A stretch of 9,186 nt of DNA, taken from the IMG/VR virus record IMGVR_UViG_2548876943_000020, one strand, 5' to 3'. The translations under genes and the position numbers were made by a program. The first letter of the stretch is position 1. Every line of letters begins with the position of its first letter. A model generated the notes under the pieces. It was given only the letters and a program-made list of their open reading frames with translations. It had not been told where the DNA came from and did not search any database. The stretch comes from a virus (lineage: Duplodnaviria; Heunggongvirae; Uroviricota; Caudoviricetes). Below, piece by piece: positions 1 to 9,186 of this stretch.

Positions 1-159
1 TACATCAACGCCGGGTATTTCACGGTGAAAGAAGTGGTGCTGGATGATGAAGATGGTTACCAGATACGGCTGACGCCCCAATTAACGGGTAAAGGCCAGC
101 AGTGGTTAACTCGCAAGCTACTTGATGCTGGTTTGTTAAAACCAGTAGCGGCTGAGTGA
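1..159 (+). CDS. 3' end (last 52 codons plus TGA) of an unidentified conserved protein-coding gene; partial, continues upstream of the window
   Basis: Frame 1 is open from the window edge and ends ...GKGQQWLTRKLLDAGLLKPVAAE*. The same 52-aa C-terminus is encoded in inverted orientation at 9028..9186 with only synonymous differences, which argues for a real, selected coding sequence. Confidence 0.5.
   Translation, partial: YINAGYFTVKEVVLDDEDGYQIRLTPQLTGKGQQWLTRKLLDAGLLKPVAAE
1..159. repeat. Left arm of an imperfect inverted repeat (partner 9028..9186)
   Basis: Reverse complement of 9028..9186 aligns colinearly with 1..159 with no gaps. The outer 54 nt are identical; the inner 105 nt carry 13 synonymous codon differences plus TGA versus TAA. 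Similarity stops exactly at the stop codons. Confidence 0.9.
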
Positions 160-166
160 TTAAATT

Positions 167-2965: not shown

Positions 2966-3031
2966 TTAATTAGAATAATTCGCATCGTGTTTGAACGGAA
3001 TTTAACACTAGTCACTTGTTAAGGATTACCA

Positions 3032-3181
3032 ATGAACAAGCTATCTATGGGGGTGTTTCGCTGTTCAAGTGTCAGCGAAATATTGAAATATATTAGTGCA
3101 ATAACATTTCATCGGGCGCCGATTAGATACGGCGTGGAAAAGGTGGAAGGCAAAAGCTATGACCGACTACGCCGGACGTGA
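3032..3181 (+). CDS. Small ORF (49 aa) immediately upstream of lxc; possible ulx-like gene
   Basis: ATG at 3032 preceded by AAGGA; ends TGA at 3179..3181. It is below the 60-aa ORF-track cutoff and is supported only by its RBS and its position upstream of lxc. Confidence 0.2.
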   Translation: MNKLSMGVFRCSSVSEILKYISAITFHRAPIRYGVEKVEGKSYDRLRRT

Positions 3182-3268
3182 AATAATATGTCCACACTAT
3201 CTGATACAATAAAACCGAATAGGACATAATTTCGACGTCAAAGCCTTGGCACAGGCTGGAGAGAAAAC

Positions 3269-3517
3269 TTGAAAAAGCGATACTACACAGTAAAGCATGG
3301 GACGCTACGAGCATTACAAGAGTTTGCTGACAAGCATAACGTTGAGGTGCGAAGGGAAGGGGGCAGTAAAGCTCTGCGCATGTACCGTCCGGACGGGAAA
3401 TGGCGGACAGTCGTTGATTTCAAAACAAACAGTGTTCCCCAGGGGGTCCGCGATCGGGCATTCGAAGAATGGGAGCAGATCATCATAGATAACGCATTGC
3501 TCCTGAATGCAGATTAA
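3269..3517 (+). CDS. lxc: Lxc/Bof-like C1 co-repressor, 82 aa, TTG start
   Basis: The ORF starts at a TTG with SD GGAGAG 7 nt upstream and has no in-frame ATG near the start. The 82-aa length and the position between the mat-position gene and the portal match P1 lxc (bof) as I recall it. Confidence 0.5.
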   Translation: MKKRYYTVKHGTLRALQEFADKHNVEVRREGGSKALRMYRPDGKWRTVVDFKTNSVPQGVRDRAFEEWEQIIIDNALLLNAD

Positions 3518-3532
3518 ACTTTCCGCCCTTTT

Positions 3533-3551
3533 GCCCGGTCTATCGCCGGGC
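3533..3551. terminator. Hairpin between the convergent lxc and 213-aa ORF stops
   Basis: GCCCGG-tctatcg-CCGGGC lies in the 39-bp gap between the stops at 3517 and 3557. The downstream U-tract is weak on both strands. Confidence 0.3.
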
Positions 3552-5520: not shown

Positions 5521-5537
5521 CAAATAATTAGAGCAAT
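5521..5537 (-). promoter_or_regulatory. C1 operator-like site between the cre stop and the 103-aa ORF
   Basis: Minus strand ATTGCTCTAATTATTTG matches the consensus ATTGCTCTAATAAATTT at 14 of 17 positions. Confidence 0.4.
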
Positions 5538-5554: not shown

Positions 5555-6586
5555 CTAATCGCCATCTTCCAGCAGGCGCACCATTGCCCCCGTTTCACTA
5601 TCCAGGTTACGAATGTAGTTCATGACAATATTTACGTTGGTCCAGCCACCAGCTTGCATGATCTCCGGTATTGAAACTCCGGCGCGGGCCATATCTCGCG
5701 CGGCACCGACACGGGCACTATGTCCAGACCAGGCCAGGTATCGCTGACCAGAGTCATCTTTTGCCCCGTAAATCAATCGGTGAGTTGCTTCAAAAATCCC
5801 TTCCAGGGCGCGAGTTGATAGCTGGCTGGTGGATGATGGCGCGGCAACACCATTTTTTCTGACGCGGCAAAACAGGTAGTTATTCGGATCATCAGCTACA
5901 CCAGAGACAGAAATCCATCGCTCAACCAGTTTAGTTACCCCCAGGCTAAGTGCCTTCTCTACACCAGCGGTGCTAACCAGCGTTTTCGTTCTGCCAATAT
6001 GGATTAACATTCTCCCACCGTCAGTACGTGAGATATCTTTAACCCTGATCCTAGAAATTTCGGCTATACGTAACAGGGTGTTATAAGCAATCCCCAGAAA
6101 TGCCAGATTACGTATATCCTGGCAGCGATCGCTATTTTCCATGAGTGAACGAACCTGGTCGAAATCAGTGCGTTCGAACGCCAGCGCCTGTTTTGCACGC
6201 TCACCGGCATCAACGTTTTCTTTTCGGATCCGTCGCATGACCAGTGAAACAGCATTGCTGTCACTTGGTCGTGGCAGCCCGGACCGACGATGAAGCATGT
6301 TTAGCTGGCCCAAATGTTGCTGGATAGTTTTTACTGCCAGACCACGCGCCTGAAGATATAGAAGGTAATCGCGAACATCTTCAGGTTCTGCGGGAAACCA
6401 TTTCCGGTTATTCAACTTGCACCATGCCGCCCACGACCGGCAAACGGACAGAAGCATTTTCCAGGTATGATCAGAAAACGCCTGGCGATCCCTGAACATG
6501 TCCATCAGGTTCTTGCGAACCTCATCACTCGTTGCATCGACCGGCAATGCAGGCAAATTTTGGTGAACGGTTAACGAATTAGTCAT
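5555..6586 (-). CDS. cre: Cre tyrosine site-specific recombinase, 343 aa
   Basis: The translation MTNSLTVHQNLPALPVDATSDEVRKNLMDMFRDRQAFS...GAMVRLLEDGD is near-identical over its full length to P1 Cre as I remember it, including the C-terminal catalytic region. The few differences are at residues 2 to 4 and about three internal positions. A canonical loxP lies 0.82 kb upstream. Confidence 0.95.
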   Translation of the reverse strand: MTNSLTVHQNLPALPVDATSDEVRKNLMDMFRDRQAFSDHTWKMLLSVCRSWAAWCKLNNRKWFPAEPEDVRDYLLYLQARGLAVKTIQQHLGQLNMLHRRSGLPRPSDSNAVSLVMRRIRKENVDAGERAKQALAFERTDFDQVRSLMENSDRCQDIRNLAFLGIAYNTLLRIAEISRIRVKDISRTDGGRMLIHIGRTKTLVSTAGVEKALSLGVTKLVERWISVSGVADDPNNYLFCRVRKNGVAAPSSTSQLSTRALEGIFEATHRLIYGAKDDSGQRYLAWSGHSARVGAARDMARAGVSIPEIMQAGGWTNVNIVMNYIRNLDSETGAMVRLLEDGD

Positions 6587-6978
6587 TTATTATGCGTGAT
6601 TTTAACAGTTAAGCCTTGTTCATGAAGTATCTCATCAATAATTCGAATCACATCCCCTGGTAGATCATCGTTCTCGAAATATCTGTGATCGGGGATTTCT
6701 ACAGTGATTGGGGTTGCTGCTTTATGCAAAATCCGAACAATCTTTTTTTCTTTTTTGCATGTTGCATATTCAGCCTCTTCGATATCTATCCAGCTCGCAC
6801 CATCAAATTGCTGGTAAACCCGAGTGTATAGTAAGCGGTTTCGCTTTACTTCTTCTGCTAACTCCCAAATTGCAACAGCCATAGCACGTTCATTTTCATT
6901 CGTTCCAGGGTTAGCAGCTTTTTGTTTTGCGTCGTTCAGTAAGGCGTTTACCTTGGCATCTGTCAGGCCATTAAACAT
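6583..6978 (-). CDS. Hypothetical protein, 131 aa, translationally coupled to cre; not recognised
   Basis: ATG at 6978 with SD GAGGTGA upstream. Its TGA overlaps the cre ATG as ATGA. No motif I can name. Confidence 0.6.
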   Translation of the reverse strand: MFNGLTDAKVNALLNDAKQKAANPGTNENERAMAVAIWELAEEVKRNRLLYTRVYQQFDGASWIDIEEAEYATCKKEKKIVRILHKAATPITVEIPDHRYFENDDLPGDVIRIIDEILHEQGLTVKITHNK

Positions 6979-6997
6979 TCATCACCTCATGATCAAG

Positions 6998-7219
6998 TTA
7001 AATTATTGTTTTCAGCAGAGTGTACAGGATTGGCTCTGCCTTTACCTGGTTATGGTTCTCGTCATAGAAACGCCAGCGACCGCGCGTGCGTTCTATTTTC
7101 TCTTCACCGCGAGATAATGACAGTTGGTAACTATCACGCTCAAACCATTTTGCCCGCCAGTAACCACGGTTTTTCTCAAGCTCAAGATGAGTGGACACTT
7201 TAGCAGCTGAATATCCCAT
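6998..7219 (-). CDS. Hypothetical small basic protein, 73 aa, first gene of the leftward cre operon; not recognised
   Basis: ATG at 7219 with a strong SD AGAGGTGA upstream. Trp/Arg-rich with two similar segments (GYWRAKWFERDSYQL and GRWRFYDENHNQV). Its stop is 19 nt before the 131-aa ORF start. Confidence 0.5.
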   Translation of the reverse strand: MGYSAAKVSTHLELEKNRGYWRAKWFERDSYQLSLSRGEEKIERTRGRWRFYDENHNQVKAEPILYTLLKTII

Positions 7220-7250: not shown

Positions 7251-7311
7251 TGCGCTACGCGAAATCTGGAGCACTAACACTGCCAACATTTCGCAGATTT
7301 TACGTAGCGCA
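7251..7311. promoter_or_regulatory. Large imperfect palindrome in the leader between the GATC cluster and the 73-aa ORF
   Basis: Arms TGCGCTACGCGAAATCTG (7251..7268) and CAGATTTTACGTAGCGCA (7294..7311) are complementary at 16 of 18 positions, with a 25-nt loop. Confidence 0.3.
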
Positions 7312-7315
7312 ACCT

Positions 7316-7337
7316 TGATCAAATGATCAAGTGATCA
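7316..7337 (-). promoter_or_regulatory. Cluster of three TGATCA (Dam GATC) hexamers; candidate methylation-sensitive promoter for the leftward cre operon
   Basis: TGATCA occurs at 7316, 7324 and 7332 with 8-bp periodicity, and TTGATC could serve as a -35 on the minus strand. Dam-sensitive cre promoters are described for P1, but the exact correspondence is not verified here. Confidence 0.4.
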
Positions 7338-7408
7338 CTATTTGACCTGATAAGGTATTGAACTGTATGGATTTACAGGTAAATTAATCATGTTCAATAA
7401 CCCTTAAG

Positions 7409-7442
7409 ATAACTTCGTATAATGTATGCTATACGAAGTTAT
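7409..7442 (+). other. loxP: loxP recombination site (Cre target), wild-type 34-bp sequence
   Basis: Exact ATAACTTCGTATA-ATGTATGC-TATACGAAGTTAT: two 13-bp inverted arms around the 8-bp asymmetric spacer. Confidence 0.97.
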
Positions 7443-9020: not shown

Positions 9021-9027
9021 TCTTCCA

Positions 9028-9186
9028 TTATTCAGCCGCCACCGGTTTTAACAAGCCAGCATCGAGCAGTTTACGCGTCAACCACTGCTGGCCTTTACCC
9101 GTTAATTGAGGCGTCAACCGTATCTGGTAGCCATCTTCATCATCCAGCACCACTTCTTTCACCGTGAAATACCCGGCGTTGATGTA
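9028..9186 (-). CDS. 3' end (last 52 codons plus TAA) of the same unidentified gene as at 1..159; partial, continues beyond the window
   Basis: The minus-strand frame encodes the same 52 residues as 1..159, with 13 synonymous codon differences and a TAA stop. Confidence 0.5.
   Translation of the reverse strand, partial: YINAGYFTVKEVVLDDEDGYQIRLTPQLTGKGQQWLTRKLLDAGLLKPVAAE
9028..9186. repeat. Right arm of the imperfect inverted repeat (partner 1..159)
   Basis: See the left arm. Homology ends exactly at the stop codon and identity is perfect at the window edge, so the repeat probably extends beyond the window. Confidence 0.9.

Follow-up and report, generated by a model that had tools for sequence, protein, structure and literature searches.

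The loxP-cre interval of the window

Cre/loxP is a very widely used genetic tool, and the natural operon that contains cre has been little studied. We analysed this operon in a stretch of 9,186 nucleotides from the Caudoviricetes record IMGVR_UViG_2548876943_000020 of IMG/VR (the window, by which we mean the whole stretch). It is natural DNA, as the E. coli plasmid NZ_CP045829.1 is colinear with all of it at 99.9% identity. All features of the locus lie on the minus strand of the window, where a loxP site is followed by the gene cra, by a gene of 131 codons that we call orf131, and by cre (Table 1). Our main finding is that orf131 is a single-gene accessory cassette which replaces an ancestral spacer of 7 nucleotides (nt) between cra and cre, and that it is a minority allele in each of two deeply diverged lineages of P1-like phage-plasmids. 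As it stands orf131 is a well-delimited uncharacterised gene in a known operon, and not a new kind of system. What is new is the delimited insertion and its history in the P1 cre operon; the other half of the observation from which we started, the gene cra, was already known.

Table 1. Features of the loxP-cra-orf131-cre locus, with positions in the window (SD, Shine-Dalgarno sequence; pI, isoelectric point; aa, amino acids)
Feature	Position	Strand	Basis
loxP, canonical 34-bp site	7409..7442	.	exact 34-mer string match; aligns with P1 lox
homologue of P3cre/pR1, the P1 Dam-sensitive cre promoter (predicted)	7297..7336	-	P1 annotation (104-129 plus Dam sites) carried over via the alignment
cra, 73 aa, basic product (pI 9.6)	6998..7219	-	homology to P1 Cra; PHROG 804
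cra-orf131 spacer, 19 nt, with the orf131 SD GAGGTGAT and one GATC (6991)	6979..6997	-	direct sequence reading
orf131, orphan accessory gene; 15.0-kDa, acidic (pI 5.6), soluble product	6583..6978	-	codon-position variation, dN/dS, PHROG 20152
ATGA overlap of the orf131 stop (TGA) and the cre start (ATG)	6583..6586	-	coordinates and sequence
cre, 343 aa; codons 1-7 donor-type, P1-type from about codon 8	5555..6586	-	comparison with P1 and Salmonella-type empty sites
foreign cassette-linked tract: last cra codons, spacer, orf131, cre codons 1-7	6566..7031	-	differences to empty-site P1-type comparators

The distance from loxP is 823 nt to the cre ATG and 431 nt to the orf131 ATG, as an earlier note on this DNA had reckoned from the sequence; in P1 the cre ATG stands at 436 when the lox centre is taken as position 1. 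In most respects the locus follows that of P1 (X03453, NC_005856). The loxP site is identical, the leader is homologous and includes the GATC promoter region, the products of cra and cre are 93% and 98.5% identical in amino acids, and in both cases a cre gene without an SD lies close behind an upstream open reading frame (ORF). The window differs from P1 in an insertion of 404 bp that holds a third gene between cra and cre, and the ORF next to cre is orf131 (joined by ATGA) in the window and cra (at a gap of 7 nt) in P1. P1 also has a promoter, P1cre/pR3, in the 3' end of cra, where the counterpart DNA of the window is sequence of the donor type described below.

The ORF of 73 codons is the phage P1 gene cra, which has long been annotated and whose product is of unknown function. 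Its position relative to loxP in the alignment is that of cra, and its protein matches PHROG 804 (E=1.1e-32). In the P1 record X03453 of 1986 the interval from loxP to cre already has it as 'pot. ORF1 (aa 1-73)', it is named cra, at 207-428, in the P1 reference NC_005856, and the legend of a 2008 map places cra between loxP and cre (PMC2409434). The statement of the earlier note that P1 has no annotated gene in this leader is thus wrong. The two extra genes that it proposed are both present as ORFs, of 73 and 131 aa, but only orf131 is extra: the 73-aa ORF is shared with P1 and its relatives, and orf131 is absent from P1.

The insertion between cra and cre

The net insertion of 404 bp is seen relative to P1, to the near-isogenic plasmid NZ_CP058684.1 (99% identical in its backbone) and to 66 empty-site loci of P1 type. 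The alignment with the P1 loxP-cre interval that the earlier note had proposed shows that the insertion is real and non-random and defines its boundaries. In three deeply diverged P1-like lineages the empty sites consist of the cra stop, exactly 7 nt and the cre ATG, and the 7-mers read GTGTTAA, GCAGACA and CTAACTT. Filled sites have, in place of these 7 nt, orf131 preceded by a spacer of 19 nt that carries a strong SD. Both this spacer and the junction AATAAATGAC are kept in all carriers, and the ATGA overlap is conserved in all 8 alleles of the gene.

A survey of IMG/VR yielded 80 loci found via Cra, 77 of which could be scored. Sixty-six were empty, 11 were filled (one of them frameshifted) and none held other cargo. 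Loci of the diverged lineages that were retrieved through Cra were empty in 20 of 20 cases, with a spacer of 7 nt. We therefore rejected the idea that the slot between cra and cre is a general insertion hotspot, since only two states are found in the 77 scorable IMG/VR loci and the 20 diverged ones. A tblastn search found orf131 in 14 PLSDB records among about 700 P1-like plasmids, each time abutting the integrase gene, and in none of the deposited phage genomes. It is present in 32 of 5426 complete E. coli genomes, mostly strains of O111:H8 and O103:H2, and was seen only in the cra-cre slot. The filled replicons include both IncY and the pO111_2 (p0111) type, the latter with the MOB-suite label 'IncHI1B' in PLSDB, and pO111_2 shares the protein WP_000481733.1 (hypothetical protein) unchanged with further plasmids of E. 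coli. A conserved orphan third gene is thus part of this operon in a minority of wild P1-like phage-plasmids, most of them from Shiga-toxin-producing E. coli O111 and O103.

Two individual copies can be mentioned here. The sole chromosomal match to orf131 is at 1878363-1878748 of NZ_CP015229.1 (E. coli 06-00048), and the plasmid of the same strain, NZ_CP012497.1, holds the same allele; the match is either an integrated P1-like element or the outcome of two differing assemblies of one strain. In IMGVR_UViG_2534681832_000025 (our loci L038 and L122) the interval from cra to cre is 410 and not 411 nt, with a tblastn identity of only 83%, and this copy of orf131 is apparently frameshifted.

orf131 is a protein-coding gene with an orphan product

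Coding conservation across relatives, the lack of which would have spoken against the gene, is clear. All 8 alleles have 131 codons, and their variable sites are spread over the three codon positions as 15/14/43. The ratio of non-synonymous to synonymous divergence (dN/dS) is 0.11-0.35 in comparisons with a dS of 0.3-0.5. Constraint varies along the gene. In codons 91-131 comparisons between the lineages show 8-11 synonymous against 0-3 non-synonymous differences (ratio of the corresponding proportions, pN/pS, 0-0.10), and in codons 61-90 constraint is relaxed (pN/pS 0.26-0.78, never above 1). We conclude that orf131 is a genuine gene whose protein is kept by purifying selection. Its product is hydrophilic, and its GC content of 40.4% compares with 45.5% for cra, 50.5% for cre and 48.2% for the window.

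The earlier note stated that the product resembled nothing it recognised, and for orf131 this stands after database searches. Residues 1-131 match positions 1-131 of PHROG 20152 (E=3.8e-92), a family of unknown function, and neither this entry nor WP_000481733.1, which is the same protein without any difference, carries a function or a description. Profile searches of Pfam, NCBIfam and the PDB gave no match, and PADLOC-DB 2.0 gave only a partial match to JetC that is not significant (E=0.01, 11.7 bits). A word-indexed search of 5.8e9 proteins returned nothing beyond the cluster of orf131 itself, tblastn against phages and plasmids likewise found no homologue beyond that cluster, and an exhaustive HMMER search over 1.84 billion representative proteins found only the cluster, one fragment and repeat-protein artefacts. 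No paper in the library that was searched mentions WP_000481733 or PHROG 20152. The gene is in short catalogued, but it is an uncharacterised orphan.

Four long repeat proteins, P0008-P0011, scored against orf131 with E=1e-9 to 1e-4. P0008 and P0009 were rejected as relatives, as their scores are summed from motifs of 19-59 residues over 7-12 tandem repeats. P0010, which has the same multi-stretch pattern, and P0011, which has no single matched stretch, were set aside uninspected.

The resident gene cra

DNA of cra is present in the approximately 700 P1-like plasmids of PLSDB and in 689 of the 5426 complete E. coli genomes, and Cra is confined to P1-like elements of Escherichia, Salmonella and Klebsiella. 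Across deep lineages its dN/dS is 0.17-0.26, which indicates purifying selection. Cra has no significant match in Pfam, NCBIfam or PADLOC. Its AlphaFold2 model, built from an alignment of 9 sequences, is unreliable (predicted local distance difference test, pLDDT, 54), and a Foldseek search of the PDB with this model gave nothing significant (best E=0.89).

Many Cra proteins of 73 aa are named 'creatininase' in NCBI annotation, with no Pfam or NCBIfam match. A creatininase is much longer than 73 aa, and the name appears to be an error that has spread between records. Additionally, the otherwise 99% identical plasmid NZ_CP058684.1 has a 1-bp deletion that frameshifts cra at the equivalent of window position ~7197, and the protein database contains many truncated Cra clusters. 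The gene may often be dispensable or mis-sequenced.

Probable exchange between lineages

A diverged P1-like region, with c1, coi, a gene of 356 aa, a Cra of 71 aa and a Cre of 342 aa, is found on Salmonella and Klebsiella contigs of 88-97 kb. Most loci of this type are empty and a few (L008-L011) have orf131. Compared with the window, the products of the L008-L011 type are 60% identical in aa for Cra, 81% for Cre, 46% for C8 and 88.5% for orf131. Synonymous divergence gives the same picture, with a dS between the lineages of 0.39-0.49 for orf131, 1.4-1.5 for cra, above 2.7 for c8 and saturation for cre. When the window is aligned to L008 and L011, identity is about 90% over ~7044-6550 and 60-70% outside. 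The low dS of orf131 and this block of about 90% identity among diverged neighbours point to an exchange long after the lineages had split.

The flanks of the insertion indicate its direction. In P1-type carriers the first seven cre codons read ATGACTAATTCGTTAACCGTT (MTNSLTV), compared with MSNLLTV in P1, and 20 of their 21 nt match Salmonella-type empty sites while 14 of 21 match P1. The last 21 nt of cra show the same donor-type pattern; the 3' codons of cra in the window differ from P1 by six synonymous changes and the stop codon, and the peptide ...LYTLLKTII is the same. The donor-type flanks of P1-type carriers span the final ~8 codons of cra on one side and codons 1-7 of cre on the other. 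The window differs from every empty-site P1-type comparator at 7031, 7018, 7016, 7013, 7007, 7004 and 6566, in addition to the 404-nt gap. Allele diversity of orf131 is also higher on the Salmonella side, with a dS of 0.315 in Salmonella-type loci against about 0.1 among P1-type carriers. The donor-type cre start and flanks, together with this higher diversity, argue for a transfer from the Salmonella type to the P1 type. The moved tract would be about 0.45-0.5 kb long and would reach from the 3' end of cra through orf131 to codon 7 of cre.

These comparisons also explain the start of Cre, where the earlier note saw a junction scar at codons 2-4. The link to the insertion is confirmed, as MTNSLT occurs in 11 of 11 filled loci and MSNLLT or MSNLMT in 66 of 66 empty P1-type loci, but the sequence is the native start of a Salmonella-type Cre and not a scar. 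Of the five differences between the Cre of the window and that of P1, which the same note took to be concentrated in these codons, two are found there (S2T and L4S), and the other three (E39D, A178S and A252S) are ordinary polymorphism.

We propose that orf131 was inserted once, in the Salmonella/Klebsiella-type lineage, where it may have arisen or arrived, and that it then spread into the P1-type phage-plasmids of E. coli (IncY and p0111-type) by homologous recombination through the conserved 3' end of cra and 5' end of cre. The crossovers would lie in the cra 3' end and inside the first ~10 codons of cre, with S2T and L4S carried along, and the spread would require no mobility function of orf131 itself. 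If so, the gene crossed between deep P1-like lineages by way of ~20-40 nt of flanking gene ends, which would be a case of accessory-gene movement without mobility machinery. The donor lineage of Salmonella/Klebsiella type has no megablast-level match in INPHARED or PLSDB.

This lineage has a further gene of its own. The extra gene of 356 aa lies between lox and cra and has an ATGA overlap with the cra start (1699-2769 in L008, 1434-2504 in L012-L031). Its product matches PHROG 7674, of unknown function, and has no match in Pfam, NCBIfam, PADLOC or the PDB.

Expression and coupling to cre

The earlier note described strong SDs on both small ORFs, and the computed duplex energies with the anti-SD agree. 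They are -7.1 kcal/mol for cra and -6.9 kcal/mol for orf131, which places both among roughly the best 5% of positions in the window (background median -2.4). For cre we obtained +1.5 kcal/mol for the window, -1.4 for L008, -2.5 for P1, and -2.3 or +0.7 for the empty sites of diverged lineages. Thus cre has no SD in any configuration, and its start is always at most 7 nt after an upstream ORF. The simplest reading of an SD-less cre close behind an upstream ORF is translational coupling. Having no ribosome-binding site themselves, natural cre genes seem to rely on the frame in front of them, and cre would be translated by termination-reinitiation from cra in P1 and from orf131 here. In the window orf131, whose ATGA fusion to the cre start the earlier note had already pointed out, is the likely coupling partner of cre.

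The earlier note also described a GATC-rich promoter region in front of these genes. The GATC sites at 7317, 7325 and 7333 cluster where the Dam-sensitive cre promoter is located in P1, and by this homology the three-GATC region is predicted to be the cre promoter. The suggestion that orf131 rides on the cre transcript gains support from the same comparison: it would be co-transcribed with cra and cre from Dam-sensitive promoters that lack a C1 operator. A search between lox and cre for C1-operator-like sites found none at three or fewer mismatches, which would fit expression of orf131 in lysogens as well as on DNA entry.

The regulatory region of cre does not have the same pattern of Dam sites as in P1. 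The GATC nearest to lox is lost at 7386, where the window has GATT at the position of P1 Dam site 1, and a GATC is gained in the promoter cluster at 7333, where P1 has GACC.

Comparison with known systems and possible functions

Two known arrangements can be compared with this locus. Morons are single accessory genes found between conserved genes of related phages, as known from lambdoid comparisons, and classical morons bring their own promoter and terminator. Like a moron, orf131 is one extra ORF between conserved neighbours, it is patchy (it is lacking from NZ_CP058684.1, and the survey gave 66 empty and 11 filled sites), its GC content is lower than that of its flanks, and expression in the lysogen is plausible. 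However, a consensus scan of the minus strand, which is crude and leaves room for weak promoters, found no promoter-like or terminator-like site flanking it, and orf131 is built into an operon, joined to cre, and moves with pieces of the flanking genes. The other parallel is with the lambdoid xis-int pair, in which a small gene overlaps the start of a tyrosine recombinase gene. Here too a small gene immediately precedes and overlaps the gene of a tyrosine recombinase, with which it is predicted to be co-transcribed. Unlike Xis, the product of orf131 is acidic and 131 aa long and matches no Xis or recombination directionality factor (RDF), winged-helix or DNA-binding family; more than 95% of relatives do not have the gene, and Cre is not known to need a directionality factor.

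Our tentative preference, which we would not yet call probable, is that orf131 encodes a small, soluble, acidic, moron-like accessory protein that acts in phage-host or phage-phage conflict or in interaction with the host. We lean this way because the gene is patchy on near-identical backbones, has spread laterally, has a foreign composition, encodes an acidic orphan and would be expressed in lysogeny and on entry. We have considerably more confidence in the model as a whole, in which cra is the resident gene, orf131 is an accessory cassette that was transferred between lineages and is co-expressed with its neighbours, and the function is guessed as above; this we regard as probable. There is a smaller chance that orf131 has a function outside all the classes considered here. 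Of comparable weight, and also unlikely, is the possibility that it is the founder of a new family with an activity tied to the first transcript made after P1 DNA entry, either as a regulator of Cre/lox or as an anti-defence or exclusion protein. If it should be true that orf131 modulates Cre or counters host defence, it would be a useful protein.

Several points weigh against the moron-like reading and the model around it. There is no signature of diversifying selection, with pN/pS below 1 in all regions of orf131, which slightly weakens the guess of a conflict gene. Homology and structure leave the function unconstrained, as the AlphaFold2 model of the product, from an alignment of 7 sequences, is unreliable (pLDDT 53) and Foldseek found no significant match in the PDB (best E=0.66). 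Expression and coupling are probable on the grounds of P1 homology and SD energies, and the consensus promoter scan made no call for the P1-homologous cre promoters. The claim of a single origin, for its part, is built on the conserved junctions. Finally, orf131 is never found outside the cre operon, which could equally mean that it has a functional tie to Cre.

This last point leads to the reading of orf131 as an accessory factor of Cre/lox, a protein that would bind Cre or lox DNA and tune the level, timing or direction of recombination, for instance in dimer resolution or cyclisation, from a xis-like position. It would account for a gene that is found only directly upstream of cre and overlapping it, that is probably coupled to an SD-less cre and that is under constraint at the protein level, and the first six residues of its product resemble those of donor-type Cre (MFNSLT and MTNSLT). 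However, more than 95% of P1-like elements do without orf131, and Cre is known to work without cofactors. The acidic product has no match to a DNA-binding or Xis/RDF family and no similarity to Cre past the first six residues, and spread through flanking homology alone also explains the fixed location. We consider a role in Cre/lox recombination unlikely, at about the level of the two possibilities just named. A more modest tie to cre would be an action mainly in cis, where an upstream frame with a strong SD delivers ribosomes to an SD-less cre and the protein is incidental. The strong SD of orf131, the ATGA overlap and the arrangement in P1, which hints at a constant need of cre for an ORF in front of it, are what such a role would predict, but it does not explain why amino acids are kept while synonymous sites vary (8-11 against 0-3 differences in codons 91-131) or why all of 8 alleles are 131 codons long, and cra already served as the upstream ORF before the insertion. 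We find this explanation distinctly less likely than the previous one.

The two remaining alternatives are very unlikely. The earlier note had suggested that the two small genes could form a toxin-antitoxin-like pair, and cra and orf131 do look the part of an addiction module on the cre transcript, being small adjacent ORFs of one operon, 19 nt apart, with a basic and an acidic product (pI 9.6 and 5.6). But about 686 of 700 plasmids, 657 of 689 E. coli genomes and 20 of 20 diverged loci fetched via Cra have cra and no orf131. Moreover, cra is frameshifted in some plasmids, and neither protein matches a toxin, antitoxin or defence family in Pfam, NCBIfam or PADLOC. The unit that moves comprises orf131 and no more of cra than its final codons. 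With cra lacking its supposed partner in more than 95% of elements, we see hardly any room for such a pair. The other alternative is that orf131 is ancestral and that P1 and most of its relatives deleted it. The start of P1 cre is as similar to the start of orf131 as it is to the cre start of the window (12 of 18 nt each, counted by eye), and M-x-N-x-L-T is common to all three starts. Against this, empty spacers of 7 nt with different sequences are present in three deep lineages, and independent deletions would not recreate them; the split of the lineages is much older than the gene (dS at least 1.4, compared with 0.39-0.49 for orf131), and P1-type carriers have donor-type flanks. An ancestral orf131 is in our view highly improbable, and the reading we retain is that of an accessory cassette inserted between cra and cre.

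The likeness of the two protein starts can be described separately. The N-terminus of orf131 (6961-6978) reads MFNGLT in the window and MFNSLT in most alleles, and MFNSLT agrees with the MTNSLT of Cre (6569-6586) in 5 of 6 residues. At the DNA level the two starts are identical at 9 of 18 positions and use different codon families for Ser and Leu. The shared hexapeptide may be a relic of the insertion, a result of shared selection on the initiation region or on an N-terminal signal, or chance. The idea that orf131 descends from a copy of the N-terminal domain of Cre was rejected, as BLASTP shows no similarity.

Other features of the window

Between cre and c8, at 5521-5537 on the minus strand, there is a C1-operator-like 17-mer, ATTGCTCTAATTATTTG, which has 3 mismatches to ATTGCTCTAATAAATTT, the C1 operator consensus. 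Its counterpart in P1, ATTGCTATAATTATTTG, has 4 mismatches and is unannotated. The neighbouring c8 of the window is a diverged allele, with 91% aa identity and a dS of 0.64 relative to P1. An Rfam scan of the window found no match to an RNA family.

The two ends of the window (1-160 and 9027-9186) form an inverted repeat of 160 nt that is 91% complementary and encodes the same 44 residues. Their counterparts in NZ_CP058684.1 are the C-terminal ends of two oppositely oriented antirepressor genes with a KilAC domain. Relatives also diverge from one another at ~3000-3550 (left of ~3170), between the mat-like and portal genes. In P1-like plasmids this slot holds a type III restriction-modification system, a SIR2-family gene, a PIN-domain gene or nothing, and it looks like a variable slot of defence type; the window has the short form, without res, mod or darB.

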